Of a DNA stretch of 37,647 nucleotides, positions 13,091-33,193 are shown piece after piece. The notes under the pieces are model-generated. The model was not told where the DNA came from, searched no databases, and saw nothing but the letters and a program-made list of their open reading frames with translations. The stretch covers positions 1 to 37,647 of the forward strand of contig MFOV01000008.1 of the NCBI GenBank assembly GCA_001782515.1. The letters run 5' to 3'. Each line of letters starts with the position of its first letter. Position 1 is the first letter of the stretch. Source of the stretch: Candidatus Levybacteria bacterium RIFCSPLOWO2_01_FULL_39_10. GTDB taxonomy: Bacteria; Patescibacteriota; Microgenomatia; Levybacterales; UBA12049. Made by a program: the position numbers and the translations under genes.

Positions 13091-13690
13091 CTACCCGCTG
13101 ACGCCGGGTAGTTTTTCTGCTGTTCCTTGTTTTACGTTTACCGGAAGCTCGGGCGGTTTTTCGCGCTTTGTTTCAAGTTCTTCCATCTTCTCTTCCTCTT
13201 CCTCTCTTTCCACTTTTTCCTTCGCCCTTTCTTCCTGTTTGGCAGGAGCATTAAATGTGGGATCATAGTACTGCTCTTTGTGAAGTTCTTGTCTTATTTT
13301 TGTTTTCTTTGCTTCCTCCTCGGGATCTACTTCCGGTTTTAAACTAGGAATCCCAAACATGTCTTTAATTGTGCCCGGTTTTTGATTGTCTGATGGCTGA
13401 TTGCTGATGGCTGATTGCTGACTATTCTTAGGCCCGTATAAATTTTGAAGAAACTCCTGAGCCTCCTCGTCCGTCATTTGCTGATTTTGAGTCTGAATAG
13501 CTTGATTTTGTTCATTTGTCCCCTGATCTAAGTTTTGATCACTGTTCGAACTTGAATCCGAACCGGTAAGCTGTCCTGCAGCAGATTTCCCAAAATCAGA
13601 CGCTCCTTTTTTTACACCTTTAGAACTGCTTTGAACAATACTCTGCCCTTTTTCGATTACTTCTTCTGAAAAATGTCCAAAACCTTTCAT
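13091..13690 (-). CDS. low-complexity acidic/Gln-rich hypothetical protein
   Basis: 199-aa ORF rich in S, Q, E and K; contains an in-frame heptamer module; antisense ORF 13127..13342 judged spurious. Confidence 0.5.
   Translation of the reverse strand: MKGFGHFSEEVIEKGQSIVQSSSKGVKKGASDFGKSAAGQLTGSDSSSNSDQNLDQGTNEQNQAIQTQNQQMTDEEAQEFLQNLYGPKNSQQSAISNQPSDNQKPGTIKDMFGIPSLKPEVDPEEEAKKTKIRQELHKEQYYDPTFNAPAKQEERAKEKVEREEEEEKMEELETKREKPPELPVNVKQGTAEKLPGVSG
13391..13425. repeat. heptamer module inside a CDS
   Basis: tgatggc tgattgc tgatggc tgattgc tgactat; encodes SQQSAISNQPS. Confidence 0.8.
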
Positions 13691-13715
13691 ATTTTTATAT
13701 TTAAATTTGCTTAAA

Positions 13716-13750
13716 ACTTTTAACTTTTCACTCTGAACTTTTAACTATAT
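13716..13750. repeat. heptamer module, ACTTTTA family, intergenic copy
   Basis: actttta acttttc actctga actttta actatat; overlaps the recR stop codon; same family as 22098-22132 and 32455-32489. Confidence 0.8.
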
Positions 13751-14401
13751 CTCTATCCTTCCTTCCATGGCCCGTTGCAAAGTTATCTCATCAGCATATT
13801 CCAAATCCGCGCCTATCGGCAAACCTCTCCCGATCCTTGTTACTTTTAGCTTTTCGCCCTGCCTGCCGGCAGGCAGGTTTTGCTTGTCCGCCGGAGCCTT
13901 GGCGGAGGCGGAAGCTTTTAGCTGTTTATCAATATACATTGCAGTTGCTTCACCCTCCATTGTCGGATTTGTCGCAAGTATAATTTCCGTGACACTTCCT
14001 TCACCTTTTACTCTATCAAGGAGTTGCTTAATATATATTTCATCCGGTCCTATGTTATTCAAAGGATCAATCCGGCCGTGCAGGACATGATAAACGCCTT
14101 TATATTTTCCGCTTTTTTCAAGTGCCAAAACATCCAGCGGCTCCTCAACCACACAAATTACACCCTGATCGCGCTCGGGATCTGAACAAATTTCGCATGG
14201 ATCAGTCTCTCCTACAGTAAAACAATTTGAACAAATTATTGTTCCGGTTTTTAAGTTTTGGAGACTTTGGGCAAACTTATCGAGTTCGTATTGCGGTACG
14301 TGTAAAAGATAAAAAGTAAGCCTTTGGGCGGTTTTTGGCCCAATGCCCGGTAATTTTTCAAATGATTCGGTCAATGCCTGTACTGCTTTTGGAATCTTCA
14401 T
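13745..14401 (-). CDS. recR: recombination protein RecR
   Basis: LPGIGPKTAQRLTFYLL helix-hairpin-helix, C4 zinc finger CSNC...CEIC, Toprim region, C-terminal TRIGRGLPIGADLEYAD; ATG 14401 preferred over track TTG 14419; carries a roughly 20-aa low-complexity insertion. Confidence 0.92.
   Translation of the reverse strand: MKIPKAVQALTESFEKLPGIGPKTAQRLTFYLLHVPQYELDKFAQSLQNLKTGTIICSNCFTVGETDPCEICSDPERDQGVICVVEEPLDVLALEKSGKYKGVYHVLHGRIDPLNNIGPDEIYIKQLLDRVKGEGSVTEIILATNPTMEGEATAMYIDKQLKASASAKAPADKQNLPAGRQGEKLKVTRIGRGLPIGADLEYADEITLQRAMEGRIEI
13858..13915. repeat. palindrome-containing insertion inside recR
   Basis: 20-nt perfect palindrome CCTGCCTGCCGGCAGGCAGG (13858-13877), then TTTTGCTTGTCCGCCG (13878-13893), which is identical to 35058-35073. 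Confidence 0.8.
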
Positions 14402-14410
14402 GATTCTAGT

Positions 14411-14480
14411 TATTAGCAATTAGCATTTAGCCATTAGTTAATAAAACTAAAAGCTAGTTGCTAGTGGCTAGTTGCTCCTT
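14411..14480. repeat. heptamer modules between recR and prs (about 10 phased units)
   Basis: tattagc aattagc atttagc cattagt taataaa actaaaa gctagtt gctagtg gctagtt gctcctt; the last units encode the Prs C-terminus ATSH-stop. Confidence 0.8.
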
Positions 14481-15405
14481 TCAATTCTTCTGCTATCATA
14501 TCTGCAACACTTATTATCTCAAGTTTTCCAAATTTTCGATTTTCTGGTATCTCAATTGTATCTGTAACAATCACTTTTTTAATATTTGAATTTTGTATTT
14601 CTTGGGGAGCATCTCCTGCAAAAACTCCATGGGTAGACATAGCATAAACCTCCTCTGCCCCATTCTCCGTTAAAAGATCTGCTGAGGCAATTAAAGTTTT
14701 GCCTGTTGAAATAACATCATCGACAATTACTGCTGTTTTTTTAACGCCTCCTGTAAACTTGAGCGACTTAATATCCCCTGTTACAAGGTCTCTGTCTTTT
14801 TCAACTGTAACATATGGCACTCCGCCAAGCTCTTCTGAAATTTTTTTAATTCGTGCAATGCCTCCCATGTCAGGACTTACTAAAACAAGCTCGTGATTTA
14901 TGATTGATGATTTATGATTGATGATTTCGTGAGGGGTGGCGAGCGAATTTATTTTTTTTGCAAATAAGGGAATGGCTGAAAGTTCCCTCACTTCTTTTTT
15001 GAAAAGCTCGGATATTTTGACCGAATGAAACTCAAATGAAATAAATCTATCAACTCCAAGACTTTCCAAAATCTTAATTATAACCTCAAGCGAAACGCCT
15101 TCACCTGATCTAAACACATGGTCCTGTCTTTGATACCCAAGATAAGGGATTACAAGTGTAACTCGCCGTGCTCCTGATCTTTTAAGAGAATCGAGGATGA
15201 AAAAAAGCTCCATGTAGTATAAGTTGGGAGATATTCCCGTAGACTGTACCACCACAACATCCTGATCTAATACATCACTTATTACCCTGACTCTGTTTTC
15301 GTTGTCGGGAAAAGTATGAATTTCAATTTGGCCCAAGTCGTAACCTTTGTGATCGGCGATTTTTTGAGCCAAACTTTTATTTGAGCTTCCTGAAAAAATT
15401 AACAT
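14461..15405 (-). CDS. prs: ribose-phosphate pyrophosphokinase
   Basis: PRPP-binding loop VIVDDVISTGKTL; overall Prs layout; 314 aa; start overlaps the ybaB stop (TAATG). Confidence 0.92.
   Translation of the reverse strand: MLIFSGSSNKSLAQKIADHKGYDLGQIEIHTFPDNENRVRVISDVLDQDVVVVQSTGISPNLYYMELFFILDSLKRSGARRVTLVIPYLGYQRQDHVFRSGEGVSLEVIIKILESLGVDRFISFEFHSVKISELFKKEVRELSAIPLFAKKINSLATPHEIINHKSSIINHELVLVSPDMGGIARIKKISEELGGVPYVTVEKDRDLVTGDIKSLKFTGGVKKTAVIVDDVISTGKTLIASADLLTENGAEEVYAMSTHGVFAGDAPQEIQNSNIKKVIVTDTIEIPENRKFGKLEIISVADMIAEELKGATSH
14894..14928. repeat. heptamer module inside prs
   Basis: tgattta tgattga tgattta tgattga tgatttc; encodes EIINHKSSIINH. Confidence 0.85.
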
Positions 15406-15686
15406 TAACTACCACCTAAAAGCCCTGATAGCCCTCCTTGCATTCCTGCAAGTTTTTTAGCAGCTATTTCCTGGGATTTTTTAATAGCTTCATTTACCGC
15501 ATCTTTAATGTCGCTATCTGACCTATCATTAGTCTTAAGTTCCTGAATTTTTTGATCTCCTGAGATTTTTATTTCAACTCCGTGTTTTTCAACGTCAATT
15601 ATCTCTGCTGCAAGAAGCCGCTGAATCTGCATAGCCTGATCGCGCATCTTTTTTAATTCTCCAATTTGTCCAAAAGGATTTCTCAT
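15405..15686 (-). CDS. ybaB: YbaB/EbfC family nucleoid-associated protein
   Basis: Size, conserved position after dnaX and helical N-terminus MRNPFGQIGELKKMRDQAMQIQ; track GTG 15695 lies inside the SD GGAGGTGA, so ATG 15686 is preferred. Confidence 0.8.
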   Translation of the reverse strand: MRNPFGQIGELKKMRDQAMQIQRLLAAEIIDVEKHGVEIKISGDQKIQELKTNDRSDSDIKDAVNEAIKKSQEIAAKKLAGMQGGLSGLLGGS

Positions 15687-15692
15687 AAAATT

Positions 15693-15763
15693 CACCTCCC
15701 CCTGTTGGATAACCTTCGATATCCAACGGGGTCACGTTGGATGCGCTAGCTATCCAACAGTGA
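15693..15763 (-). promoter_or_regulatory. two-hairpin leader RNA motif, copy B (dnaX-ybaB intercistronic)
   Basis: minus strand CACU-GUUGGAU-AGCUAGCGC-AUCCAAC-GUGACC-CCGUUGGAUA-UCGAAGGU-UAUCCAACAGG-GGGAGGUG; abuts the dnaX stop and ends in the ybaB SD. Confidence 0.65.
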
Positions 15764-17143
15764 CTAATTTTTTAATTTTATCTCAACTTTTATTTTTTCG
15801 CCTGTTATCTCACTCGCAAACCTTTCAATCAAAGCTTGCGCATTTTCACTACTTAATCTATCTTTATGAAACTTGTAACCTGTTGAAAGGGTAAGTTTGT
15901 TTTTATCGAATTTTTCAATCTTACATCCTCGCAATAACCCTGCAACTGTGACATTTTCTTTTTTAATTTTTTCTATCAGCTCTTCTAATATCTTATCATC
16001 TTTATTCTCACCAACGCTTGGGTTTTTCAAACTTAAACTCGGATTCTGGGAAATGTTCGTCTGATTATCCGAATCACTGATACTCCGATTCTCTGAGTTT
16101 TCTGAGTTTTCTGAGTTTTCCGAAAAGCACCACTCAACTATTGCAAGCTCAAGTGGAAGCTGCGGAATTACGGAATATTTTACTTCCATATGAGATTTTG
16201 ATAAAAGAAGAATAAGATCCCTTGTTTCATTTGTTTTTCCTAATCCTTGCCTTGCTTCATTTATAAGTCTTTGGTGGAGTTCTTCAATAAGATTCTGGGT
16301 AAACAGCTTAAAATCAATGCCAGCGTTTGATAGATCATTGACGGTTTCGATTGCCGCATTTACGTCTTTTTCCGAAAGCGCGCTGACAAGCTCCTCTGTT
16401 GCCAAGTTTAAAGTTTTTGTTTTGTATCTTTTCTCAACTGTAATTAAACTAATACTTGATGATGTTGATAGTTCTTCAAGAATTTTTGCGCCGTCTCTAA
16501 AACTTCCGTCTGACAATTTTGCAATCTGAATTAAAGCTTCCTTATCCGCTTTTATTTTTTCTCCTTTTACAATTTGCTGAAATGAGGAAACGAGCTCCTC
16601 ATTTGTTGCTTTTGAAAAAGACAAATGAAAACAGCGAGACTTAATCGTCTCAGGAACTTTCTGAGATTCTGTTGTGCATAAAATAAAATACGCATGGGAC
16701 GGCGGCTCTTCAAGTGTTTTTAAAAGTGCGTTGAATGCTTCAGTTGTCAGCATATGCACCTCGTCAATTATATAGATTTTTTTCTTTGACTGAACAGGTG
16801 AGAGTCTTATCTTCTCCCTCAAATCCCTTATCTCATCAATTCCGCGATTTGAAGCAGCATCAATCTCAATCACATCAAGATTTGTGCCATTTCCAATTGA
16901 TAAGCAAGGAAAGCATTTGTTACAAGGCTCAATATCCCTGCCGCGCCTATTAGTGCAATTTATTGCTTTTGCTATAAGACGCGCGGTTGATGTTTTTCCA
17001 AGACCCCGGCCGCCTGTAAACAAAAATGCGTGGGGAATTTTGTCAGGAATATTCCCTTTTAGCGCGTTTTCAAGCTTTTCCCGCGCCGAAACGCAGTCAA
17101 GCTCTGAAAATTTCTTCGGTCGGTATTTTAAATAAAAAACCAT
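15764..17143 (-). CDS. dnaX: DNA polymerase III subunit gamma/tau
   Basis: Walker A GGRGLGKTSTARL, zinc module CNKCFPC, Walker B IYIIDEVHML, sensor motifs; contains a SENSENSENSEN repeat insertion. Confidence 0.93.
   Translation of the reverse strand: MVFYLKYRPKKFSELDCVSAREKLENALKGNIPDKIPHAFLFTGGRGLGKTSTARLIAKAINCTNRRGRDIEPCNKCFPCLSIGNGTNLDVIEIDAASNRGIDEIRDLREKIRLSPVQSKKKIYIIDEVHMLTTEAFNALLKTLEEPPSHAYFILCTTESQKVPETIKSRCFHLSFSKATNEELVSSFQQIVKGEKIKADKEALIQIAKLSDGSFRDGAKILEELSTSSSISLITVEKRYKTKTLNLATEELVSALSEKDVNAAIETVNDLSNAGIDFKLFTQNLIEELHQRLINEARQGLGKTNETRDLILLLSKSHMEVKYSVIPQLPLELAIVEWCFSENSENSENSENRSISDSDNQTNISQNPSLSLKNPSVGENKDDKILEELIEKIKKENVTVAGLLRGCKIEKFDKNKLTLSTGYKFHKDRLSSENAQALIERFASEITGEKIKVEIKLKN
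16093..16119. repeat. 9-nt tandem repeat (3 units) inside dnaX
   Basis: ctgagtttt x3; encodes (SEN)n; total length resembles the heptamer modules. Confidence 0.85.
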
Positions 17144-17155
17144 GGTCGCATTGCT

Positions 17156-17190
17156 CCAATTTCTAATTACTAATTTCTAAATACTAAGAC
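17156..17190. repeat. heptamer module upstream of dnaX
   Basis: ccaattt ctaatta ctaattt ctaaata ctaagac; 12 nt upstream of the dnaX ATG. Confidence 0.8.
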
Positions 17191-17298
17191 GCGGGAAGCT
17201 ATAAAATTTTCGCAACGTACGTCAGCGACGAAGAGTTTATGGATAAACAAAATTTATTCGCGCAGGCAGTAAGAAAATTTTAAAGCGACCTTAAGCGT
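17188..17298. repeat. 110-nt repeat element with inverted termini, copy 1
   Basis: About 88 percent identical to 18335-18447 by eye; ends GACGC..AAAATTTTCG and GAAAATTTT..GCGTC are inverted complements. Confidence 0.8.
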
Positions 17299-17691: not shown

Positions 17692-17694
17692 ATA

Positions 17695-17877
17695 TTAAAA
17701 ACTTGCTCTTTTGACGCGTCTTGCCTCCTCTGCTTTTGCTTTTCTGGCAAGAGAGGGCTTAAGGTAAAATTCTCGCCTTTTTGCTTCCTGAATAATTCCC
17801 TCATTTATTACTTTTTTTGTAAATTTGCGAATAAGCGAATCATCACTGTCTCCGGGCATTTTTTTAACAACTACCAT
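17695..17877 (-). CDS. rpsU: 30S ribosomal protein S21
   Basis: 60-aa basic protein; SLIRKFTKKV...EAKRREFYLKPSLARKAK pattern typical of S21. Confidence 0.88.
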   Translation of the reverse strand: MVVVKKMPGDSDDSLIRKFTKKVINEGIIQEAKRREFYLKPSLARKAKAEEARRVKRASF

Positions 17878-17888
17878 AATTTAGAAAA

Positions 17889-17960
17889 CACCTCCCCCTG
17901 TTGGATAATCTTCGATATCCAACGGGGTCACGTTGGATGCATTAGCTATCCAACAGTGAC
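17889..17960 (-). promoter_or_regulatory. two-hairpin leader RNA motif, copy C (upstream of rpsU)
   Basis: 69 of 72 nt identical to copy B; all three differences fall in hairpin loops. Confidence 0.65.
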
Positions 17961-17973
17961 CAATTTTTTTACT

Positions 17974-18294
17974 TTATATTTCATGTTTACTCCATGGCCC
18001 CATTAAATGAATATGCAAGTGGCTTATGATTTGTGCTCCCCCGCCATTTATTCCAATCCTGTAACCTTTTTTCTCAAGACCAGTCTCTTTTATCATTTTT
18101 TTCAAAATTTTTGTCATTTTTGCAAGCGAGTCTTCATCAACATCTAAAAAATCCCGGATGTGTTTTTTTGAGACTATCAAAAGATGCGTTGGTCTTATGG
18201 GATTAATATCCGGAAAAACCATAACGTCTTTATCTTCATAGGTAAACTCTTTTGGAATTTCCCCATCTCTGATTTTACAAAAAATACAATCCAT
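17974..18294 (-). CDS. HIT family protein (histidine triad hydrolase)
   Basis: CIFCKI N-terminus and HIT motif HLHIHLMG; ATG 18294 preferred over track TTG 18303. Confidence 0.88.
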   Translation of the reverse strand: MDCIFCKIRDGEIPKEFTYEDKDVMVFPDINPIRPTHLLIVSKKHIRDFLDVDEDSLAKMTKILKKMIKETGLEKKGYRIGINGGGAQIISHLHIHLMGPWSKHEI

Positions 18295-18300
18295 ATTTGG

Positions 18301-18335
18301 CAATTAGCTACTAGCATCTAGCTTCTAGCATTTAG
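18301..18335. repeat. heptamer module upstream of the HIT gene
   Basis: caattag ctactag catctag cttctag catttag; TAG recurs every 7 nt at 18305, 18312, 18319, 18326, 18333. Confidence 0.85.
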
Positions 18336-18447
18336 TGCAGGGAGCTTGTGAAATTTTCGAAGCGTACGTCAGCGACGAAGAGTTTATGGACAGACTAAAC
18401 TTTATTCGCGCAGGCAGTAAGAAAATTTTATAAGCGACCTTGAGCAC
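18335..18447. repeat. 110-nt repeat element with inverted termini, copy 2
   Basis: Shares AAATTTTCG.AGCGTACGTCAGCGACGAAGAGTTTATGGA...TTTATTCGCGCAGGCAGTAAGAAAATTTTA.AAGCGACCTT with copy 1. Confidence 0.8.
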
Positions 18448-18450
18448 TTG

Positions 18451-19332: not shown

Positions 19333-19422
19333 AGATAGAATAGATAGACTAGTATACTTGTTTTTCCGAAAGATTTAAAGTTTTTCCCTTGACAAGGAAT
19401 TAAATTAATATAAACTAAGGGT

Positions 19423-21299: not shown

Positions 21300-21329
21300 C
21301 ACACCCTCCGGGTGATCTAGGTTCACACC
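21300..21329. repeat. 30-nt repeat CACACCCTCCGGGTG..GGTTCACACC, copy 1 (spans the gnd stop)
   Basis: Matches 31819-31848 with 4 mismatches; core palindrome CACCC-TCC-GGGTG. Confidence 0.7.
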
Positions 21330-22246
21330 TTTTCTTTTTTTACCTCGTGGCCGCCGAATTCCCGACGAAGTGCAGAGACAAGTTTTGCGGTTGTTGAGTT
21401 TCTGATTTTTTCGTCTGTTTTGGACCGCTTTCGAAAATTTAGTGCTTGTTGGATGTTTTCAACCATTACTCCCTCTTCTTCTGCTGTCTTGACAGTCCAA
21501 TCGCCTTCGCCTGACGCATCAATCTCTCCTATCAAACTTTGATAATCGCCGCGATCCAGAGCATCGCGCATTCTGTCCAGCAAGAATCCAGAAACAATTG
21601 TTCCTTTTTGGAAAATACCTGCAATTTTAGGAAGATCAAACTTGTAATCTGATTTTTCCAATACCTCAAACCCCTCGGATAAACTCTGCATGAGCCCATA
21701 CTCAATACCGTTATGAACCATTTTTATAAAATGCCCTGCACCGCCCTGTCCAAAATATTCATGGCCCCCGTTAGGTTTTGACAGAGAATCTAAAACCGGA
21801 ATTATGTGTTCGTACGCGGATTTCGATCCTCCCACCATAAAAGGATATCCGTTTTTTGATGCAAGAATTCCGCCAGACGTTCCGATGCCTAAATATCGAA
21901 CGCCTATTTTTTCGAATTTCTCATATCGTCTTTCGGTATCGCGATAATTTGAATTTCCTCCGTCAATTATGATGTCGTCTTTTTCTACATACTTTCGAAT
22001 TTCTGTTAAAACTTCATCAACCGCAGTATGCGTCACCATAATCCAAATGATTCTGGGCTTATCCAAACCTTGAACCAGTTGTTTAAGCGATTCACAAACT
22101 TTTAACTTTTCACTTTTAACTTTTAACTTAAGCTCCTCCGAAGAAGCTCTTGACCTATTCCAAACATGAACTTCAAACCTGTCTTTTAAAAGTTTTGGAA
22201 CCATCCCCGATCCTATTTTCCCAAGCCCCACAAATCCTATTTGCAT
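21323..22246 (-). CDS. gnd: 6-phosphogluconate dehydrogenase (decarboxylating), short form
   Basis: NAD(P)-binding GFVGLGKIGSGM, GTSGG and HFIKMVHNGIEYG motifs; 307 aa; contains an in-frame heptamer module. Confidence 0.88.
   Translation of the reverse strand: MQIGFVGLGKIGSGMVPKLLKDRFEVHVWNRSRASSEELKLKVKSEKLKVCESLKQLVQGLDKPRIIWIMVTHTAVDEVLTEIRKYVEKDDIIIDGGNSNYRDTERRYEKFEKIGVRYLGIGTSGGILASKNGYPFMVGGSKSAYEHIIPVLDSLSKPNGGHEYFGQGGAGHFIKMVHNGIEYGLMQSLSEGFEVLEKSDYKFDLPKIAGIFQKGTIVSGFLLDRMRDALDRGDYQSLIGEIDASGEGDWTVKTAEEEGVMVENIQQALNFRKRSKTDEKIRNSTTAKLVSALRREFGGHEVKKEKV
22098..22132. repeat. heptamer module, ACTTTTA family, inside gnd
   Basis: actttta acttttc actttta actttta acttaag; encodes LKLKVKSEKLKV. 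Confidence 0.85.
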
Positions 22247-23305: not shown

Positions 23306-23340
23306 AAAACTCTAAATTCTAATATCTAAATCCTAAATAA
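23306..23340. repeat. heptamer module, left flank of the four-helix-bundle gene
   Basis: aaaactc taaattc taatatc taaatcc taaataa; starts directly after the ATG of 22979..23305. Confidence 0.8.
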
Positions 23341-23704: not shown

Positions 23705-23738
23705 TATTTAGAATTTAGTGCTTAGTATTTAGGATTTA
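23704..23738. repeat. heptamer module, right flank of the four-helix-bundle gene, inverted relative to 23306-23340
   Basis: ttattta gaattta gtgctta gtattta ggattta; its reverse complement resembles the left-flank units; overlaps the zwf stop. Confidence 0.8.
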
Positions 23739-25254: not shown

Positions 25255-25263
25255 CTTCAGGAA

Positions 25264-25689
25264 ATGGCAATGGTCGAACAAGAATATTCTCATGCTGTGC
25301 CCCAGGAAACAGTTGAGTCAAGTTTGGATGATCAAATTTTAGGAATTCGAAGTGCTGTACTTGGTTATCTTTCATTTAATGGCGCTGATAATCAATTCAA
25401 CATAGAATACCGAGGAGAAAATGAAAATATTTGGCTTCTTAATATCAGACCAAATGATCCAAGCCAAGATTTTGCACAAATATCATTGGGAGCGCCTGTA
25501 AAAAAAGACGGAAAGCTTTTTGCAGTTATTCATTTTCCGGCTACTCTCAAAAACTCTGGTAAGGATGATTCGGATAATGATTTTGGTCCTATCGCTTTAG
25601 AGGGGCTGGATGCAATTGGGCCAATTAAAAAAGCGCTGTCTCCTATATATGAAGGCCGGCCAAAAATTCGCGTTAATGATCCCGCTTAA
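25264..25689 (+). CDS. hypothetical protein (141 aa)
   Basis: ATG ORF behind a good promoter; no motif recognised. Confidence 0.5.
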   Translation: MAMVEQEYSHAVPQETVESSLDDQILGIRSAVLGYLSFNGADNQFNIEYRGENENIWLLNIRPNDPSQDFAQISLGAPVKKDGKLFAVIHFPATLKNSGKDDSDNDFGPIALEGLDAIGPIKKALSPIYEGRPKIRVNDPA

Positions 25690-26471
25690 ATAATCTGGTC
25701 TGTAATGAGGATTGTTTTTTGAGCAACCTCAGGCTTTTTGTAAAACCTTGCTGGAACATTCGATACATCATCTTGCCCTGAGCCTGTCGAAGGATCAAAC
25801 ATTAACTTTAGCGCTTCCCTTTTCTCTCTTCCCAAAACGAGTATTAATATAAGATCAAGAAGAGAAAGTGCATGGAAATTCATGGTAATTCTCTGCCCAT
25901 ATCCTTCAAGTTCGTAAAAATCAACAAAACCGCTCTGATCCTCCATCATTTTTTTTACGATATTTTCAGAGCTTTGAGTTTTTAGCTTTGAGTTTTTAGC
26001 TCGGGCAGGAATGCCCGCCGTGTGTCCATCATCACCAATTCCTAAAATTCCGACACTTTTTGGAAAATACTCAAAAATAAATCTGAGGGCTTCATCATAT
26101 TCTTTTGTGGTCTGTTCGATATTTTTATCTTGGAGAATTGGATAAAAACGTACATTTTTATTTTCAAAATAAGAAAGAAGTCCAGTTGATCTTATCATCA
26201 GCTCGTTACTGTTTCTCTTATCTTTTGTGGAGTACCTCTCATCAATCAGCCCAACTGCACCTGCTTTTAATGTTTTATCTCCCGCTAATTTTTCATAAAG
26301 CCTCTTAGGGGTTGTTCCGCCTGATAAGAAAAGTGCTGTTTTCTGATCTGAATATTTATTAAGAATTTCTGATAATATCTCGTTTGCTTTTTGAAAAGTT
26401 GGCAATTGCACTACAACAATTCCTTCTTTTTCTGTGAATTGATTAAGCCCTAAAAGATGGGACCTTTGCAT
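25686..26471 (-). CDS. pgl: 6-phosphogluconolactonase
   Basis: LSGGTTP and GIGDDGHTAG motifs of the 6PGL/NagB family; adjacent to zwf and gnd; contains an in-frame heptamer module. Confidence 0.82.
   Translation of the reverse strand: MQRSHLLGLNQFTEKEGIVVVQLPTFQKANEILSEILNKYSDQKTALFLSGGTTPKRLYEKLAGDKTLKAGAVGLIDERYSTKDKRNSNELMIRSTGLLSYFENKNVRFYPILQDKNIEQTTKEYDEALRFIFEYFPKSVGILGIGDDGHTAGIPARAKNSKLKTQSSENIVKKMMEDQSGFVDFYELEGYGQRITMNFHALSLLDLILILVLGREKREALKLMFDPSTGSGQDDVSNVPARFYKKPEVAQKTILITDQII
25969..26003. repeat. heptamer module inside pgl
   Basis: gagcttt gagtttt tagcttt gagtttt tagctcg; encodes AKNSKLKTQSS. Confidence 0.85.
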
Positions 26472-26704: not shown

Positions 26705-26718
26705 TCGCGCACCAAAAT

Positions 26719-28476
26719 ATGGTAAAAGAAATTGAACAATTAAGGCAAATTCAGAATCAACGTGACATCTTTTCTTCTCTTGCAGATAAAAGAGAAAAGC
26801 AGCATTCTCAGCTCGGACAAAATCTCGGTCAAGTGGGTATTGAGCGTGATATTAGAATTGGTCAGGTAATGGAAAGAACGCTAAACCGCTGGCAAAGACT
26901 ATCTGAACAAACCGAAGCTCTCGACCAGAAGCTAAATGAGGAGAGCGTTAAAGTGAATGATCAGGTTCAAAAATTAAGAGAATTATCAGAAAGAAATCCA
27001 GTTATCGTTCCGATTGTTACGAGATATGAAGAAGAACTTGTCTCATTAGGTTTTAGAAATATTCCTGAAGTCAAACAAGCCAAACCTGAAAAACCAATTG
27101 AACCCCAACAAACCGAGGAAGTGAAACCTGTAAGGAAAAAAACAGTTGTTGGGAAAAAACCAGATAAAGTGGTAACAAAAGCTGTAAAAGGTGAAGAAGT
27201 CGAACTTCTTTCCGGACAGGAGGTTGTTATAAGTGGAAAGCTTAAATCTGAACTTTTAAAGGCAGTTGATGAAGGAATGTCATCCCCGGAAGGTCTCGCG
27301 GTTAGGATATACGGCGAAGATACACCAGCTAAAAGAAAGGCTTTAAACAAATTAATGAATGCTTTAAATAAGGATCTTTCAGATTTTAGACTCAGGGTAA
27401 TAAATCAGGTCCCACCAAGAGCACGGTTTCAGGGTGTTCAGGCCCGATACAATCTGAGAAGTATCGATGAGCCTCAGCTGCAAATAGCTCCTTGGGCAGA
27501 AGTTATTGAAGCTACGTTACCTAAAGAGCCTGAAGAAATTTTAGCAGAAGGAAGAAGAATTCGAATAGTACCTAAAGAAGAAATAGAAGAGCTTATGAAG
27601 GCGGAAAAACCTTCTGAAAGAAGAGGTTATATAAAAGATTCAGTAATTCTTGGTTTTTATGAGAGGAAACCAAGAAACGTAACACTTCCTAATGGACAAG
27701 TAATTGAAACTGATTCTGCCTGGCCTTATTACTTAGCTCAATTCATTGCAGATGGAACAAATAGTGTTGGTGAAATGGCTGAAAAAGTCTATGGAGAAGA
27801 CAATAAAAAAAATCGAGGAAGAGTAAATGCCGCAATTGCTGCAGCAAATAGAACAATTAAAAACAGTGGGTATAAATTTGCAAATATTACTAGTAGATCT
27901 GATAGCAATAGAGGAATACAATCAAAGTTTGAGTGGCATGACCCAAGTGGCAATGCGGTAATATTAAGGAAACATGAAGTAGTTTTACCTCCAAAAGTTC
28001 CAGATACAATAGCTGAGGTAATAGAAATCCCCTATACCCCATCAGAAGATGAAATAAGATCTGATGAGGAGACAAGGATAGTCATAGCACTAACCTCCAT
28101 GCTTAAAAATAGTTCAGTTATAGATTTTGCAGTACTGCAAAGACTTCTAAGGACCGAGGATAGAATTAAGACGCTACATAGGCAGAGAATGTATAGGCCG
28201 TATCAGGCAGACGAGTTAAGATCTCTGTTTGCCTCTGGGTTAAAAAAATTACAAGAAGAATCGCTCTCGCCCGTTTTAAGAAAATCTTGGACAGAAAATG
28301 ACGAGAAAGCATGGGTCAATATTCAGACACTTGTTGCAAGACTAGCAGGCGGTAACTTTGAAGAATTTATCAAAGAGATACAAAGACTGATAAATAGAGC
28401 GACAAGAGGATTTTATGAGCCTCATGATGGGAAGGCTGTTGAATGGATAAAGCTCCCACCGGGAAACGGAGAATAA
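26719..28476 (+). CDS. coiled-coil protein with two OmpR/PhoB-like winged-helix repeats (585 aa), partner of the GHKL ATPase
   Basis: N-terminal heptad-like coiled coil (aa 1-110), K/P/E-rich linker, gapless internal repeat aa 161-247 versus 321-406 (VELLSGQ/VTLPNGQ, RIYGED/KVYGED, KRKALNKLMNALNKDL/NRGRVNAAIAAANRTI) with a Trans_reg_C-like pattern, then a helical C-terminal domain. Confidence 0.75.
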   Translation: MVKEIEQLRQIQNQRDIFSSLADKREKQHSQLGQNLGQVGIERDIRIGQVMERTLNRWQRLSEQTEALDQKLNEESVKVNDQVQKLRELSERNPVIVPIVTRYEEELVSLGFRNIPEVKQAKPEKPIEPQQTEEVKPVRKKTVVGKKPDKVVTKAVKGEEVELLSGQEVVISGKLKSELLKAVDEGMSSPEGLAVRIYGEDTPAKRKALNKLMNALNKDLSDFRLRVINQVPPRARFQGVQARYNLRSIDEPQLQIAPWAEVIEATLPKEPEEILAEGRRIRIVPKEEIEELMKAEKPSERRGYIKDSVILGFYERKPRNVTLPNGQVIETDSAWPYYLAQFIADGTNSVGEMAEKVYGEDNKKNRGRVNAAIAAANRTIKNSGYKFANITSRSDSNRGIQSKFEWHDPSGNAVILRKHEVVLPPKVPDTIAEVIEIPYTPSEDEIRSDEETRIVIALTSMLKNSSVIDFAVLQRLLRTEDRIKTLHRQRMYRPYQADELRSLFASGLKKLQEESLSPVLRKSWTENDEKAWVNIQTLVARLAGGNFEEFIKEIQRLINRATRGFYEPHDGKAVEWIKLPPGNGE

Positions 28477-28477
28477 G

Positions 28478-30016
28478 ATGAGCCCAGAAAGAACAGCACA
28501 TCAAGGACAGCCACATGATTTAGTAATAAGAGAAGAAATTTCAACTCGTGCAATTGAAGCTCTTATGGCAAATTACAGAGATTCTCAGCAGGCGATTTTG
28601 GATCTTGTTGATAATGCAGTTGATAATAGAATCGAGGGCAAGCCATCTACAATAAGAATCAGGGTCTCAAAAGACGAAATAACAATTACAAATACAGGTG
28701 GCAAAGGTCTTAATTCAGAGGGATTAACAAATTATTTTAAGTGGGGTCATTCTGAAAAAACAGATGCTGAAATTGGTCAATTCGGTGTTGGCGGAAAAGC
28801 TGCAATGGGATTTTTAGGAAGGGGCATGGAAATAACTTGTTCTGCAGACGGTTCAGACACTGAATACCATGTTGAGGATATATCCTGGGAATCAAGATCT
28901 GAAGGATCGCTCAAAGAATTTACGCCGGAAGTTAAAAGAGCAGAATCTGAGGATGGTTATTTTAGAGTAAAAGTAACTGGTCTTAAGAGAGTAATAAATT
29001 CACAAGCGCTCGCAACAAAAATTGGTGATATTTATAGACCATTGCTTCTAGACAGATCAATAATAGCAACGGTAAATGGAAAACCTGTTGAACCAGTTAG
29101 CGTAAACTATGTTGAGGGTAATCCAGAACTAAAATCACAGAAGTATAAACTGGGTACGCGGTTTGGCGATGAAATCGAAGCGGAATTTGGAATACTCCAG
29201 CCAAATCAACGGGTTAAACCAGGAATCAGATGTTATTATAGGGGAAGGCTTATTGAAAGCGAACAATTTTTTGGTCACCCAGGACCTGCGCAGCTTGCCG
29301 GAAGCTCCCGCCTCATTGGCGAAGTACATTTAGACAATGTACCTGTAATACCAAATAAATCATCATTTATTCACAGTAGTTTGGAGTGGGAACAAGCATC
29401 AAGAGCAATACATAATGCCTTGAATCCATGGATGGAGAAAATAGAAAAATTAAGACCAGATTCAAGTGTTAACGTTGAAAGATATGAAAAAGATCTTGCA
29501 AGAAATGCTAAAAGAATTATAGAACATGTTCTTTCAGAATCTGGAATTATCACAAAAGCACTGCTTCCGGGCGGATCGATTGGACGTTTGCCTGCCGAAG
29601 ATCAAGAATCACCGAGACCAAATCCAAAAGGAACACATAAATCTCCAAAATCAATTGAGGGCAGAACTGCCCCTAAACTTCAAGCGCGAGGAGAAACAAA
29701 AAGATGGGGCGCAATGCATCAGGTGGATATAGTTTCTATGGGAAATGATCAAATCAGATCTGTTGTAATAGATGATGAAAAAACAAGAAGAAAGATTTTA
29801 ATAATCAACTCTGATTATCCACTGTACAAAGCGAATAAAAAATTGGGACCTGAGGCTCAAGAACTTTATATGGCTGAAACAATAGCTGCAGAAATATGCA
29901 GATTAGTTACAAAAGATAGATCAGTGGAGGATTATATTGAGATGGTTAACGAAATTATGGGAGATTGCGGAAGAATTATTGGTAGTAGAATAACACGAAG
30001 AAACGCAAGAAATTAA
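28478..30016 (+). CDS. GHKL (Bergerat-fold) ATPase, MORC / HATPase_c_3-like (512 aa)
   Basis: N box AILDLVDNAVDN (aa 39-50), G1-like TNTGGKGL (aa 71-78, non-canonical), G2 IGQFGVGGKAAMGFLG (aa 99-114), then MORC-like IYRPLL...VNGKPVEP and YYRGRLI segments; ATG is 1 nt after the stop of the upstream gene. Confidence 0.8.
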   Translation: MSPERTAHQGQPHDLVIREEISTRAIEALMANYRDSQQAILDLVDNAVDNRIEGKPSTIRIRVSKDEITITNTGGKGLNSEGLTNYFKWGHSEKTDAEIGQFGVGGKAAMGFLGRGMEITCSADGSDTEYHVEDISWESRSEGSLKEFTPEVKRAESEDGYFRVKVTGLKRVINSQALATKIGDIYRPLLLDRSIIATVNGKPVEPVSVNYVEGNPELKSQKYKLGTRFGDEIEAEFGILQPNQRVKPGIRCYYRGRLIESEQFFGHPGPAQLAGSSRLIGEVHLDNVPVIPNKSSFIHSSLEWEQASRAIHNALNPWMEKIEKLRPDSSVNVERYEKDLARNAKRIIEHVLSESGIITKALLPGGSIGRLPAEDQESPRPNPKGTHKSPKSIEGRTAPKLQARGETKRWGAMHQVDIVSMGNDQIRSVVIDDEKTRRKILIINSDYPLYKANKKLGPEAQELYMAETIAAEICRLVTKDRSVEDYIEMVNEIMGDCGRIIGSRITRRNARN

Positions 30017-30017
30017 T

Positions 30018-31127
30018 TTATGGAAGAATTGATTCTCCTGATATTATTCTTAAAATATCTTTGTAAGAAATAAAGGCAAGAAAACTTAGGAGTAAAAATA
30101 TTCCAATCATGTGAGCATATGCTTCAAATTTTGGACTGACTTTTCGCCCAGTTACAGCCTCAATCATAATAAACAGCAATCGTCCGCCATCAAGTGCCGG
30201 AATCGGAAGAATATTAAGAACCGCAAGCGAGAGACTTAACATATAAACAAGCGCCAAAACCGCGTTTGGTCCAACTTGGACGAATTCCCCCGTAAGCTGT
30301 GCCATACCAATCGGACCTGCAACCCCTTCAGGTAATGTGAGTTTTGTAATAAGCGTTACCATCATGTCTTTAAAAGCAAATACAACTCGGGCGCTGTCCT
30401 CTCCTGCCTGCTTAAATCCATAAAATAAACTCTTCGGGAACGGATATTTCGCAACTTCGATGTTTTGAGAGATTGCGATTCCCATCGGCCCTTGATCTTT
30501 TGGAAATTCTTTTCTTGGCGTAACATTAATTATCTTAAGACTTCCTTCTCTTTGGACAACTATTGTTATTTCTTGTCCCAGATTTTTGCGGGTCTCAGAA
30601 ACTAGAGTTTCGGAATCAGTAATTTTAGTGCCGTTGATTTCTCGTATTAAATCGTCTTTTTTAAGCCCTGATATTTGGGCGGGAGTGTTAGCAACAATTT
30701 CTGTTACTCTAATATCCTGCCCGGGCGTTGGTATTCCCTCAAACGTCAAAAGATATGTTGCAATTACAACTGCCAGGAGAAAATTCATTACAACTCCGGC
30801 AACAACAACAATTGCCCTTTGGTATTTTGGTCGTGCAAAAAAAGCTCTATCCAAATCAGCTGATGGCTTATGGCTAATGGCTAATGGCTTAATTTTGCCT
30901 CCGCCTGCCTCATCTTCACCATAAAGCTTTACAAATCCGCCTATGGGAAGTGCATTTATCGAATAAATTGTTTCTCCCTTTTTTTTGCTCCAAATTCTGG
31001 GCGGGAAGCCAAAGCCGAATTCCTCAATTTTTATTCCGAATTTTCGAGCTGTCAGATAGTGACCAAGTTCGTGAATTAAAACAAGAATTGTAAGAATTAC
31101 TAAAAAGGTAAAGATGGTAAGTAGCAT
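30018..31127 (-). CDS. rseP: RIP metalloprotease RseP (site-2 protease, M50)
   Basis: HELGHY zinc motif in the first TM helix, PDZ domain, C-terminal NILPIPALDGG motif; contains a heptamer module. Confidence 0.92.
   Translation of the reverse strand: MLLTIFTFLVILTILVLIHELGHYLTARKFGIKIEEFGFGFPPRIWSKKKGETIYSINALPIGGFVKLYGEDEAGGGKIKPLAISHKPSADLDRAFFARPKYQRAIVVVAGVVMNFLLAVVIATYLLTFEGIPTPGQDIRVTEIVANTPAQISGLKKDDLIREINGTKITDSETLVSETRKNLGQEITIVVQREGSLKIINVTPRKEFPKDQGPMGIAISQNIEVAKYPFPKSLFYGFKQAGEDSARVVFAFKDMMVTLITKLTLPEGVAGPIGMAQLTGEFVQVGPNAVLALVYMLSLSLAVLNILPIPALDGGRLLFIMIEAVTGRKVSPKFEAYAHMIGIFLLLSFLAFISYKDILRIISGESILP
30855..30889. repeat. heptamer module inside rseP
   Basis: atcagct gatggct tatggct aatggct aatggct; encodes KPLAISHKPSAD. 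Confidence 0.85.
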
Positions 31128-31133
31128 ATTTTC

Positions 31134-31252
31134 TAGACGATAGATTGTAGAAGGTAGATAGTAGAATCTTGAAGATAGAAGATTGAAGATCGATTCTATC
31201 TTCTACCGTCAACCCTCAAGCTACTATCATCTATTTTCTACCATCCATTGTC
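31134..31252. repeat. 17-unit phased heptamer array with mirror (inverted) halves
   Basis: tagacga tagattg tagaagg tagatag tagaatc ttgaaga tagaaga ttgaaga tcgattc | tatcttc taccgtc aaccctc aagctac tatcatc tattttc taccatc cattgtc; the right half is the reverse-complement type (..TCTA/..TCAA) of the left TAGA/TTGA units. Confidence 0.85.
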
Positions 31253-31256
31253 AAGT

Positions 31257-31808: not shown

Positions 31809-31818
31809 CTTCTTTTCT

Positions 31819-31848
31819 TACACCCTCCGGGTGTCATAGGTTCACACC
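31819..31848. repeat. 30-nt repeat CACCCTCCGGGTG..GGTTCACACC, copy 2 (11 nt upstream of the frr ATG)
   Basis: tacaccctccgggtgtcataggttcacacc; the minus strand carries GGAGGGUG next to its complement CACCC. Confidence 0.7.
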
Positions 31849-31870
31849 CTTTCTTAAAAACTTTTAATCA

Positions 31871-32317
31871 TTAAAGTTCAAGTCTACTAAACTCACGAAC
31901 AACTATGTTCTCACCTAGTTTACCTATAGTTTGCTTAATTAATTGTTCGATTGTTAATGAACTATCGCGAATGTACTCTTGTCTTAGAAGTCCGTCAACA
32001 TCTTTTGGATTCATTGCTGAAACTTGAAGCGCTATTTCATGAGCCAGATTTTTGAATTCAGTTGTTCTTGCAACAAAATCAGTTTCACAAGTCACTATCA
32101 CCAAAACCCCTACTTTTCTCTGATGAACATAGCTTTCAACTATTCCCTGAAGCGTTTCGCGGTCTTGTTTTTTCTCAGCTTTTTCTATTCCTTTTTTCTT
32201 CAAAAACTCAAGCGCTTTACTGTAATTACCTTTTGCCTCATCAAGAACCTCTCTGCAATCCGCTATACTTGCGCTTGTTTCTTCTCTTAATTTTTTAATC
32301 TGGTCAATATCTGCCAT
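31871..32317 (-). CDS. tsf: elongation factor Ts (short form)
   Basis: N-terminal UBA-like IKKLREETSASIADCREVLDEA..., core TCETDFVART; 148 aa. Confidence 0.9.
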   Translation of the reverse strand: MADIDQIKKLREETSASIADCREVLDEAKGNYSKALEFLKKKGIEKAEKKQDRETLQGIVESYVHQRKVGVLVIVTCETDFVARTTEFKNLAHEIALQVSAMNPKDVDGLLRQEYIRDSSLTIEQLIKQTIGKLGENIVVREFSRLEL

Positions 32318-32356
32318 AATTCAAGTTTATAATTAAAAATTTAAAATTAAAAGTTT

Positions 32357-33193
32357 TTAATCTTTATTTTTGCTATTTGATTTTGGCTTATCGGTTGCTT
32401 TAATTTTACTATTGACCTTTGGTTTTTTTGAATTATCTGTTTTAGTTTCTTCTAATTTTTCACTTTTAACTTTTAACTTTAAACTATTTTTCCCCTCTAT
32501 CCATGCATCCATTATATAACCAATTATCAATTCGAGTGAGCCTGCGGCATCATCATTTGCGGGAATAGGATAGTCGATCAAAGTCGGGTCTGCATTGGTG
32601 TCGGTTATTGCAACTGTTGGAACGCCTGTTCTAATAGCTTCCTTAACTGCAATATCTTCAAGCCGGGAGTCAATGATGAATAAGAGGTCCGGCTTTTTAT
32701 TTAAAGCGTAAACTCCGCCGTACAATTTCTCAAGTTTATCTTTTTCTTTCTGCCACATTCTAACTTCTCGCTTTGTATATCCTTTTTGCTTCTGAGGATC
32801 GCTCAAATTTTCATTAAGTTCTTCCATTTTTTTAAAATTCTTAGAAACTTCAGCAAAATTTGTGAGAAGCCCTCCGACCCACCTGCTGGTTACGAAATAT
32901 ATACCTGGGTCTTCCTTTACTTCTTTTTTTGCTTTTTCAGCTGAGTTTTTTATAATATCGCTTGATTGTCTTTTTGTGCCGACTATAACTAAAGTGCTAT
33001 TTGGGGTCTGGGCAACTTTTTTAACGTACTTTCCTGCTTCCTCAAGTCCTTCTTTTGTTTTTGCAAGATCAATTATATGAATACCGTCCCTTGCTTCATA
33101 TATATAGTCACGGGCCTTAGGATTAGAACGCACAACCTGATGTCCAAAATGACAACCTGCTTCAAGAAGCTCTTCAAGTGAAATTGTGCGCAT
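32357..33193 (-). CDS. rpsB: 30S ribosomal protein S2 with Lys-rich C-terminal tail
   Basis: LLEAGCHFGHQ, IVGTKRQ, RWVGGLLTNF and AITDTNADP motifs; C-terminal tail contains a heptamer module. Confidence 0.95.
   Translation of the reverse strand: MRTISLEELLEAGCHFGHQVVRSNPKARDYIYEARDGIHIIDLAKTKEGLEEAGKYVKKVAQTPNSTLVIVGTKRQSSDIIKNSAEKAKKEVKEDPGIYFVTSRWVGGLLTNFAEVSKNFKKMEELNENLSDPQKQKGYTKREVRMWQKEKDKLEKLYGGVYALNKKPDLLFIIDSRLEDIAVKEAIRTGVPTVAITDTNADPTLIDYPIPANDDAAGSLELIIGYIMDAWIEGKNSLKLKVKSEKLEETKTDNSKKPKVNSKIKATDKPKSNSKNKD
32455..32489. repeat. heptamer module, ACTTTTA family, inside rpsB
   Basis: atttttc actttta actttta actttaa actattt; encodes LKLKVKSEKL, the same decapeptide as in gnd. Confidence 0.85.

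Follow-up and report, generated by a model that had tools for sequence, protein, structure and literature searches.

Why should two unrelated housekeeping proteins of one bacterium share ten consecutive residues that are encoded by the same nucleotides? The question is raised by contig MFOV01000008.1 of Candidatus Levybacteria bacterium RIFCSPLOWO2_01_FULL_39_10, whose 37,647 nucleotides (nt) are called the window in this work. The genes for 6-phosphogluconate dehydrogenase (gnd) and ribosomal protein S2 (rpsB) in the window both encode LKLKVKSEKL (amino acids (aa) 39-48 and 238-247, respectively), in each case from the identical 23-mer AAGTTAAAAGTTAAAAGTGAAAA, and in both genes this string belongs to a short tandem array of heptamers. 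A preliminary description of the window had noticed the shared decapeptide, and had ascribed it to the DNA-level spread of an element of which only in-frame insertions are tolerated. Here we describe the heptamer arrays of the window and of related DNAs. We consider it probable (roughly 0.6) that they are heptanucleotide tandem arrays of the short tandemly repeated repetitive (STRR) or long simple-sequence repeat class, which form a genome-wide, DNA-level trait of the Candidatus Levyibacteriota lineage and are tolerated by proteins.

Period-7 Arrays in the Window and in Related Genomes

The host is a groundwater bacterium of Candidatus Levyibacteriota, within the Candidate Phyla Radiation (CPR). 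The best relatives of the zwf gene in the window (57-77% identity) are Candidatus Levyibacteriota metagenome-assembled genomes, and the order of ribosomal, replication and pentose-phosphate genes is conserved between the window and these relatives. A strict lag scan of the window (at least 17 of 21 matches at lag p, with p from 2 to 21) detected eight regions at p = 7, eight at p = 14, one at p = 9 and none at any other lag; 50 dinucleotide shuffles gave a mean of 0.04 regions, versus the 8 observed at p = 7. At a looser threshold 15 arrays were found at p = 7 and none at p = 5, 6, 8 or 11, and Tandem Repeats Finder (TRF) reported ~20 period-7 arrays. The typical array is made of ~4-5 heptamers, often two alternating ones, which results in a period of 14. 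The arrays show features by which the STRR/long simple-sequence repeat class is defined: head-to-tail 7-nt direct repeats of at least ~3 copies, over-represented relative to both chance and neighbouring periods, at multiple loci, in several unit families and mainly intergenic. Nine of the 15 arrays fall within the non-coding 15% of the window, mostly at gene boundaries and several directly against start codons, and the density of arrays in non-coding DNA is ~8-fold that in genes (9 arrays in 5.6 kb vs 6 in 32 kb). Rfam (gathering threshold) and tRNA scans of the window returned no matches, and the possibility that the arrays are parts of known RNA genes was rejected on this ground.

Period-7 enrichment was also found in the Levyibacteriota relatives in variable amount; two of their loci (L011 and L012) have no arrays in 21 kb. 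Loci from outside Levyibacteriota that were retrieved by the same zwf search are nearly all without period-7 arrays. The units are diverse, with ~40 heptamers across 17 loci and many of them found just once. Metagenome contigs that carry the 23-mer (727 kb in total) contain 4.3 period-7 arrays per 10 kb and at most 0.7 at other periods; the 188 further period-7 arrays on these contigs consist of many different units and have a median length of 31 nt (90th percentile 38 nt). We concluded that period-7 repeats are a lineage-wide property of the DNA and are not copies of one sequence. A few period-7 arrays were also seen in Chitinophagaceae/Ferruginibacter (Bacteroidota) loci L042, L048, L053 and L073, in agreement with the published heptamer repeats of Bacteroidetes.

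Arrays within Coding Sequences

The arrays that the preliminary description had located inside genes were recovered at those places by TRF and by direct reading, their translations agreed with the peptides listed there, and Pfam searches confirmed the hosts and their neighbour as RecR, Prs, DnaX, short-form 6PGDH (gnd), Pgl, M50/RseP and S2; the hosts of coding arrays thus include essential housekeeping genes. All are on the minus strand. The gnd array (22096-22132, gene 21323-22246) belongs to the AAAAGTT family and consists of AGTTAAA twice, AGTGAAA, AGTTAAA and AGTT; its peptide LKLKVKSEKLKV reads KLKVKSEKLKV. The rpsB array (32449-32489, gene 32357-33193), of the same family, encodes KNSLKLKVKSEKLEE/SLKLKVKSEKLEE at the start of the variable C-terminal tail. 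In prs (array 14894-14928, gene 14461-15405), alternating AATCATC and AATCATA units encode EIINHKSSIINH, with the core (E)IINHKSSIINH. The pgl array (25969-26003, gene 25686-26471) has period 14, with (GCTAAAA ACTCAAA) repeated 2.3 times, and places RAKNSKLKTQSS just after the DGHTAG motif. In rseP (array 30855-30892, gene 30018-31127), AGCCATN units encode KPLAISHKPSAD (KPLAISHKPSA) in a loop after the GGFVKLYGEDE motif. A related unit, alternating CAGCAAT and CAGCCAT, forms the array at 13383-13425 in a low-complexity open reading frame (ORF) of 199 aa (13091-13690; no Pfam match), with the peptide NSQQSAISNQPSDNQ (QQSAISNQPS). The seventh case, also reported previously as a 9-nt variant, is in the variable linker of dnaX (16092-16120, gene 15764-17143), where the 9-nt unit AAAACTCAG is repeated three times and reads ENSENSENSE. 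This is an ordinary codon-multiple repeat and no heptamer array: six of the seven coding arrays have units of 7 or 14 nt, and only that of dnaX is divisible by three.

Frame Arithmetic and the Shared Decapeptide

Since 7 and 3 share no factor, each 21 nt of a heptamer array cover the three codon phases once, and the encoded peptide has a period of 7 aa, as the preliminary description had correctly derived from three heptamers making 21 nt. For the same reason, when the unit contains a stop codon at any position, a pure array of it has no open frame. This is the case for AGTTAAA, whose TAA interrupts all sense frames of a pure array. When units of AAAAGTT and AAAAGTG are mixed (fourth base T or G) and read in the frame AAG TTA AAA GTT, the only stop-free order is T-(T/G)-G-T-(T/G), which gives KLKVKSEKLKV. 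Two of six frames are open in the gnd array, the sense frame with KLKVKSEKLKV and an antisense frame with TFNFSLLTFN. The prs, gnd, pgl, rseP and rpsB arrays each have one or two of six frames open (one in prs and pgl). The array of the 199-aa ORF can be read through in each of the three sense frames. Among nine intergenic arrays, five have none of the six frames open.

A third copy of the AAAAGTT family (repeat family D9) is non-coding, as had been proposed. It lies on the minus strand at 13715-13750, between the recR stop codon TAG (13745-13747) and the start of the next gene at 13690; its first unit shares the AG of that TAG. It has the 18-mer AGTGAAAAGTTAAAAGTT in common with gnd and has no open sense frame. 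Unrelated proteins can share one peptide, variant unit included, because the same DNA units pass through the same reading-frame filter. The identical decapeptide therefore does not prove common descent of the copies, and neither a single mobile element nor selection on the peptide is needed to account for it.

Loop Insertions and a Replaced Native Segment

The coding segments had been expected to appear as insertions in orthologue alignments and to map to surface loops or tails. This was borne out for some genes and failed for gnd. The prs module adds 13 aa relative to both Bacillus subtilis Prs (PDB 1dkr) and the modal length, the short form being present in 74 of 120 homologues. The remaining site variation makes it an insertion hot spot, because 46 of the 120 homologues hold assorted inserts there. 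In the AlphaFold model of Prs (mean predicted local distance difference test score (pLDDT) 88.8) the module is in coil with pLDDT below 50. The pgl module adds ~11 aa relative to L011 and L012, and a different and longer insert is found at the same place in L001; a PDB search with Pgl was uninformative, its alignment stopping at the array. We concluded that the prs and pgl modules are true loop insertions. The loop that contains the rseP array differs by 0 to ~20 aa between orthologues; compared with Aquifex RseP (9j82) it has 15 additional residues. In RpsB the last residue of the Pfam S2 domain is aa 234, and aa 235-249 of the following tail, which varies among orthologues, are encoded by the array; the related KLKIKSQK is found at the same place in RpsB of L001. 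The array segment of the 199-aa ORF is missing from the L007 homologue, and the dnaX repeat adds 8 aa relative to orthologues. In some genes, namely prs, pgl, rseP, rpsB and the 199-aa ORF, the arrays are disordered loop or tail insertions.

The gnd module aligns without gaps to PDB 6vpb and is just 2 aa above the modal length of 120 homologues. In a structure model with a mean pLDDT of 93.7, the module makes up the latter half of helix 33-43, a turn and strand 48-50 within the Rossmann fold, with pLDDT of 90-93. According to this model, the gnd array encodes a folded helix-turn-strand of native length, replacing rather than adding sequence.

Two other kinds of in-frame segment were noticed in the same alignments. 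On the minus strand, recR carries a 17-aa insert, ASASAKAPADKQNLPAGRQGE (13840-13900), which is absent from the L007, L008 and L015 orthologues and whose DNA contains a perfect 20-nt G+C-rich palindrome, CCTGCCTGCCGGCAGGCAGG (13858-13877). Related peptides (FAKASADKQNL) are present in pgl of L001 and in the Gnd homologue P0105, and at the prs hot spot there are inserts, ARGPVS and RRGSPALTTPR, that look G+C-rich. The palindromic recR insert and its relatives look like a second, unrelated family of in-frame dispersed elements. In L040 and L015, a longer shared peptide occupies the same hot-spot loops of gnd and rseP (in L040, YQVSSIKEDKKIHDTKYKLP and KYQVASIKKDKKIHDTKYKLHN, respectively), and in L013 that of rseP only; from these sequences, another dispersed in-frame module appears to exist in other genomes of the phylum.

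Conservation of the Arrays as DNA

The coding segments are not lineage-specific, contrary to what had been anticipated. LKLK(V/I)KSEKLK(V/I) is found at the same Gnd position in six database proteins including that of the window, the others being 58-75% identical to it, and the prs module DNA, AATCATAAATC(A/G)TCAATCATAAATC, is nearly identical at the same site of orthologues with 50-55% identity (L205 and L206). In a rough neighbour-joining tree the nearest relative of each module-bearing Gnd carries a different array type at the site, and LKLKVKSEKLKV was accordingly rejected as a marker of one Gnd clade. The other types include FKIQNSKFKIESQKLKV and LRIKNQELRIAG, which are heptamer-coded too by reading of L001, L006, L010 and L013 DNA. 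Across species the Gnd segment lengths form the series 37/44/51 and 39/46, i.e. steps of 7 aa (21 nt). Clusters of strain-level variants (≥90% identity) of gnd, prs, rseP and pgl showed neither unit-number variation nor any other length change.

We next compared codons in the six gnd genes, which were picked independently of their DNA, at positions with identical residues in each pair. Codon identity was 0.92 in the module and 0.49 elsewhere, and the best of 265 other 11-codon windows reached 72%. Within the module each lysine position keeps its own codon, AAG or AAA, and TTA, AGT and GAA are invariant; flanking Arg, Leu, Ser and Pro residues use all synonyms. Codon bias was rejected as the cause of this uniformity because AAG/AAA usage is position-fixed and because these genes use varied codons for Leu, Ser and Val outside the module. 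The gnd genes of the window and L005 share 42 identical nt with synonymous differences on both sides.

Spread of the AAAAGTT 23-mer in Metagenomes

The counts in this section are lower bounds among the matches listed, and the hits were picked by the 23-mer itself. The exact 23-mer was found on more than 120 metagenome contigs with G+C contents of 31-66% and unrelated flanks. Of 123 copies, 66 are in the KLKVKSEK frame of ORFs of at least 100 aa, 9 are antisense to such ORFs and 48 are in no such ORF. Pfam searches with 60 host ORFs of at least 150 aa gave matches to 97 families, among them class I aminoacyl-tRNA synthetases, group 1 glycosyltransferases, SecA, IF2/LepA-type GTPases, TrmD, L4 and Gnd. 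Of the 66 in-ORF copies, 59 have a sharp left edge, and the modal length is 33 nt; the right edge is variable, with total lengths of 23-42 nt. This uniformity of edge and length is partly a product of the search pattern and the stop filter. No target-site duplication above shuffled expectation was detected at 65 in-ORF junction pairs, and the module sequence contains no inverted ends or hairpin (folding energy 0 to -1.8 kcal/mol).

The modules of prs, rseP, pgl and the 199-aa ORF and seven intergenic arrays were also sought, allowing at most 2 mismatches per 21 nt, in the 727 kb of array-rich contigs and in the loci of 16 relatives. No match was found there except for the common TTCAAAA and TTAGAAA types, so most arrays are not widely dispersed as exact strings in the DNA searched.

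Non-Coding and Start-Adjacent Arrays

Unless stated otherwise, the following arrays are on the minus strand. Four arrays of related TTAGAAT/TTAGATA/TTAGTAT types lie 1-15 nt upstream of start codons. That at 10299-10329 (TTAGAAT/TTAGATA/TTAGTAT; repeat families D8 and I2) is 5 nt upstream of the start at 10294; that at 12593-12624 (ATTAGAA, D8) abuts the start codon at 12592; that at 17155-17187 (TTAGAAA/TTAGTAA, D8) is 12 nt from the dnaX start; and that at 23307-23336 (TTAGGAT/TTAGATA/TTAGAAT, D8) is 2 nt upstream of the start at 23305. The second and third are closed in six frames, and a heptamer array upstream of dnaX is also found in relatives L001, L007 and L008. Each TTAGAAT-type unit holds TAG and a TAGAAT-like hexamer, and few genes nearby show an obvious Shine-Dalgarno sequence. 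A role as leader or -10 element is possible. A promoter function found no support in a sigma-70 scan of 10-26 kb (38 sites versus 39.9 expected, no enrichment), a scan that requires a -35 box and would not reach a -10-only role.

An inverted TTAGAAT-type copy (23705-23738, I2) and an AAAACTC-type array (23680-23701) together occupy 23680-23738, just downstream of the zwf stop at 23736 (no strand assigned). The prs-recR spacer (14411-14476) also contains two arrays, a GCTAAAT type over the recR start (14411-14437) and an AGCAACT type over the prs stop (14452-14476), both closed in six frames. An ATGCTAG/AAGCTAG array (18305-18335), likewise closed in six frames, is 8 nt upstream of the start (18303) of a HIT-family gene. 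A degenerate TTCTATC-type array (31148-31193) lies upstream of the rseP start at 31127, an AAAATTT/AAAATTA array (32323-32361) fills the rpsB-tsf spacer, and a TGAATCA-type array (10495-10524) is downstream of the ORF at 10536-10898.

Two longer repeats were also found. A ~90-nt repeat (83-97% identical; 17193-17282 and 18340-18430) is located, in the orientation of the genes, just upstream of the two different heptamer arrays preceding dnaX and the HIT-family gene, so that both loci have the layout conserved element, heptamer array, start codon. A 96-nt repeat on the minus strand (15686-15781 and 17882-17977, 91% identical) contains two strong hairpins, GTTGGAT...ATCCAAC (-34.3 kcal/mol, z = -4.8). 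One copy runs into the ribosome-binding site and start of ybaB, and the other precedes a 60-aa ORF (17695-17877) that by eye resembles ribosomal protein S21. The 96-nt repeat had no match in Rfam and may be an undescribed structured leader.

Other Features of the Window

The first 10,000 nt of the window are without heptamer arrays. A terminator-like hairpin, AAAAAAACAGCCCCG...CGAGGCTG, recurs ~8 times there, one gene segment is duplicated (4761-5310 vs 7025-7541, ~85% identical), and TTGACA-17-TATAAT boxes that stop ~7-10 nt before ATG suggest leaderless transcripts in this region. Between pgl and rseP, two large plus-strand ORFs at 26719-30016 interrupt the minus-strand string of housekeeping genes; one has 585 aa without a Pfam match and the other 512 aa with a GHKL/HATPase_c_3 domain, and a switch in the sign of the GC skew suggests an inserted island, possibly a defence system. 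A short database fragment from the Pgl cluster, P0139, ends or diverges near the STGSGQDD segment; arrays of this kind seem to cause breaks or wrong joins in assemblies from short reads.

Comparison with Known Repeats

Heptanucleotide STRR sequences were reportedly described from heterocystous cyanobacteria by Mazel and co-workers in 1990. The arrays reported here resemble them, and heptamer long simple-sequence repeats, in being 7-nt tandem direct repeats, specific for period 7, at many loci, in several unit families and mostly intergenic. They differ in their CPR/Patescibacteria host, in their short and rather uniform length (median 31 nt, 90th percentile 38 nt), and in that several lie in frame within essential housekeeping genes and are conserved at the nucleotide level across orthologues of ~60% identity. 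For 35 years heptamer tandem repeats have been on record in bacteria, to our knowledge without a mechanism or role ever being established.

Rickettsia palindromic elements (RPEs), on which Ogata and co-workers reported in 2000, are said to be palindromes of ~100-150 bp that are regarded as mobile; reportedly they too are repeated DNA in frame in conserved genes, adding a surface peptide and leaving function intact. The prs (+13 aa) and pgl (+11 aa) segments fit this description, but the gnd module, which is gap-free, folded and in place of native structure, does not, and the modules are only ~21-38 nt long, tandem-periodic and without hairpin (0 to -1.8 kcal/mol) or target duplication. Neither the terminal inverted repeats nor the target-site duplications of miniature inverted-repeat transposable elements were present. 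The small dispersed repeats (SDRs) of Nostoc punctiforme, reportedly studied by Elhai and co-workers in 2008 (work cited in PMC3116915), are said to be 21-27 nt long, to have a conserved hairpin and to be inserted into heptamer arrays. They are also dispersed repeats below 40 nt in genomes rich in heptamer arrays, whereas the dispersed unit here is the heptamer array itself, unstructured and with no foreign insert within it. DNA uptake sequences of Neisseriaceae and Pasteurellaceae consist of one motif at very high genomic density that is preferentially taken up by the competence machinery. They are likewise short motifs conserved as nucleotides in coding regions, restricted to tolerated frames and peptides, found also at gene ends and sometimes in inverted pairs; the arrays have much lower density (three AAAAGTT-type copies in 37.6 kb) and many units, which argues against one motif. 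Phase-variable contingency loci provide no match: the hosts are housekeeping genes, the arrays are invariant at ≥90% identity and a 7-nt change would inactivate the gene.

TAACTGA direct repeats have been described in marine Beggiatoaceae, some Cyanobacteria and Bacteroidetes (MacGregor, 2015; PMC4679880). They share with our arrays the occurrence as 2-6 units immediately upstream of starts, occasional intra-ORF copies, the restriction of frames and orientations by stop codons and a unit common to distant lineages. Beggiatoaceae have one dominant unit; here there are dozens, and coding copies are prominent in genes for conserved enzymes and ribosomal proteins. The tandem repeats of Borgs have intra-ORF units that are always divisible by three and unique to the locus (Schoelmerich et al., 2023; PMC9879509). 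Our arrays are similar as intra-ORF DNA repeats that never break the frame and add disordered K/E-rich segments, but with a 7-nt unit the frame is kept through total length and stop avoidance, and the same array recurs in many genes; the dnaX repeat alone is of the Borg type. Heptamer arrays are known from cyanobacteria, Xanthomonas, Burkholderia, Beggiatoaceae and Bacteroidetes, and occasional intragenic copies have been described (PMC4679880, PMC4692102). In the literature searched, in which few subscription journals were covered, we found nothing that links heptamer arrays to the CPR, and nothing on nucleotide-level conservation of in-frame arrays or on arrays that replace folded native structure.

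Origin of the Arrays

How could such arrays arise? Under the favoured explanation, a period-7-specific process would make and keep short arrays of ~3-5 units (21-38 nt) from many A-rich units, probably through slipped-strand mispairing together with short-patch conversion within and between arrays, by which they would be created and homogenised. Most arrays would end up at gene boundaries. Within genes the survivors would be arrays that keep the frame, lack a stop codon and encode a tolerable peptide; a strict frame/stop filter would be followed by a looser filter of peptide tolerance. Slippage-type dynamics are favoured by the 21-nt steps, the unit diversity and the non-coding bias, and polymerase slippage is the explanation attributed to Mrazek et al. 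(2007) for heptamer excess in bacteria, as related in PMC4679880 and PMC4692102. Several observations weigh against it. Slippage by a single 7-nt unit breaks the frame, hence arrays in essential genes cannot grow unit by unit, and their constancy among strain-level variants gives no visible sign of present instability. Neither the +39 nt of prs nor the +33 nt of pgl is a multiple of 21. The same small set of array types reappears in separate gnd clades, which random slippage does not predict, and an A/T-rich seed would not be expected in contigs of 58-66% G+C, some of which nevertheless contain the exact 23-mer. The nucleotide-level conservation could instead reflect a function of the sequence itself. 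Slippage alone does not account for the non-21-nt insertions, the recurring types, the letter-perfect conservation and the high-G+C copies, and these four points leave room for short-patch templated copying or sequence function.

Some of the same observations would be explained by a discrete, ultra-small mobile or copy-pasted module of ~33 nt, AAGTTAAAAGTTAAAAGTGAAAAGTTAAAAGTT, which together with modules of other unit families would be put into genes and spacers by a templated mechanism such as short-patch gene conversion or template switching, and would spread within and between CPR genomes like RPEs and cyanobacterial SDRs. In its favour are the >120 contigs with unrelated flanks, the 66 of 123 copies in the sense frame and the 97 Pfam families (all among the matches listed), the sharp left edge and modal length, and the copies at 58-66% G+C. 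Module type does not track Gnd phylogeny, and the identity tract between the window and L005 is just 42 nt. The pgl insertion of ~11 aa has a counterpart of similar size in IF2 of L138, which by our reading of the context would be an insertion of ~11 aa relative to E. coli IF2. But the hits were self-selected, so that identity within the 23-mer follows from the search; the stop-codon filter dictates the T-T-G-T-T order of units; the right edge varies; the junctions lack duplications and the modules lack a hairpin or appreciable folding energy (0); and there are ~40 unit types, many occurring once. The 727 kb of array-rich contigs yielded none of the modules of prs, rseP, pgl and the 199-aa ORF, and no candidate enzyme gene is evident in the window. 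We regard such a module as unlikely, though to be kept in view. The DNA-level origin and the frame filter of the preliminary description stand, given the non-coding copy, the unit diversity, the codon identity and the range of host families; one spreading element is not demonstrated by the decapeptide, because the stop filter forces both unit pattern and frame. A quite different possibility is that the arrays are cis elements selected as nucleotides, i.e. 7-nt-step sites for a single-strand-binding protein (cold-shock or S1-like), leader or promoter elements, or uptake-type signals, a function for which the coding copies would be retained. In gnd and prs the modules show much stronger conservation of synonymous sites than the rest of the gene, one array type abuts four start codons, relatives retain an array just upstream of dnaX and proS, and a translational role with binding of cold-shock protein was proposed for the Beggiatoaceae TAACTGA repeats (PMC4679880). 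The very diverse units do not fit one binding specificity, the sigma-70 scan stayed at expectation, coding copies sit at arbitrary positions in many unrelated genes, and the 21 kb of syntenic DNA without arrays in L011 and L012 indicates that arrays are dispensable; we consider this reading improbable.

Could selection have acted on the proteins instead, with KLKVKSEKLKV and the other peptides as useful motifs, each selected independently in its own protein, and with the DNA periodicity as a by-product of codon choice? In favour of this, the amphipathic helix-turn-strand formed by the peptide is accommodated in the Rossmann fold of Gnd with high model confidence, and sense copies far exceed antisense ones (66 vs 9, among the matches listed). 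Yet one copy in the window (13715-13750) is non-coding, 48 of the 123 listed copies lie outside any ORF of at least 100 aa, the AAG/AAA, TTA, AGT and GAA codons are fixed with codon identity at 0.92 vs 0.49, and a period of 7 in the DNA cannot come from peptide selection, which makes convergence very improbable. The preliminary description had seen no sign of protein-level selection, and none is needed for the shared peptide; selection does act as a filter, as the excess of sense over antisense copies in long ORFs indicates even though the TFNFSLLTFN frame is open. Chimeric joins or collapsed metagenome sequence caused by the repeats, which that description had named as a possible undoing of its reading, are hardly credible. 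Three short database fragments, P0135 (rseP), P0127 (prs) and P0139 (pgl), stop or become divergent exactly at an array or close to one, but the exact full proteins recur on 8-12 contigs from independent sources (NCBI, JGI, ENA and Logan), both flanks of every array are in the same gene and collinear with orthologues, synteny with relatives is kept, the ORFs are intact and the same modules are found across many independent assemblies. A bolder view combines elements of the alternatives: the A-rich arrays would be a new class of ~33-nt non-palindromic, self-spreading or cis-selected CPR sequence, copied by short-patch templated repair into hundreds of essential genes, overwriting as well as inserting, and kept letter for letter by a DNA/RNA-level function or drive, such as a 7-nt-step single-strand reader or an uptake-type signal. 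This remains speculative and, in our judgment, doubtful.

Implications

Heptanucleotide tandem arrays, as we prefer to read these repeats, bring several new points. One arithmetic rule, the coprimality of 7 and 3 combined with stop codons, explains identical peptides in unrelated proteins. An in-frame array can, as the Gnd model indicates, replace a folded, native-length part of an enzyme, beyond decorating loops. Synonymous sites are conserved at an orthologue identity of ~60%, and the same string of 23-33 nt is in frame in ~100 families among the matches listed. For protein analysis, array segments inflate the apparent number of "CPR-specific insertions" in alignments and can seed spurious local similarity between unrelated proteins, and they can break short-read assemblies. 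Whether heptamer arrays in this phylum are a by-product of slippage, a selfish element or a functional signal is now a directly testable question.

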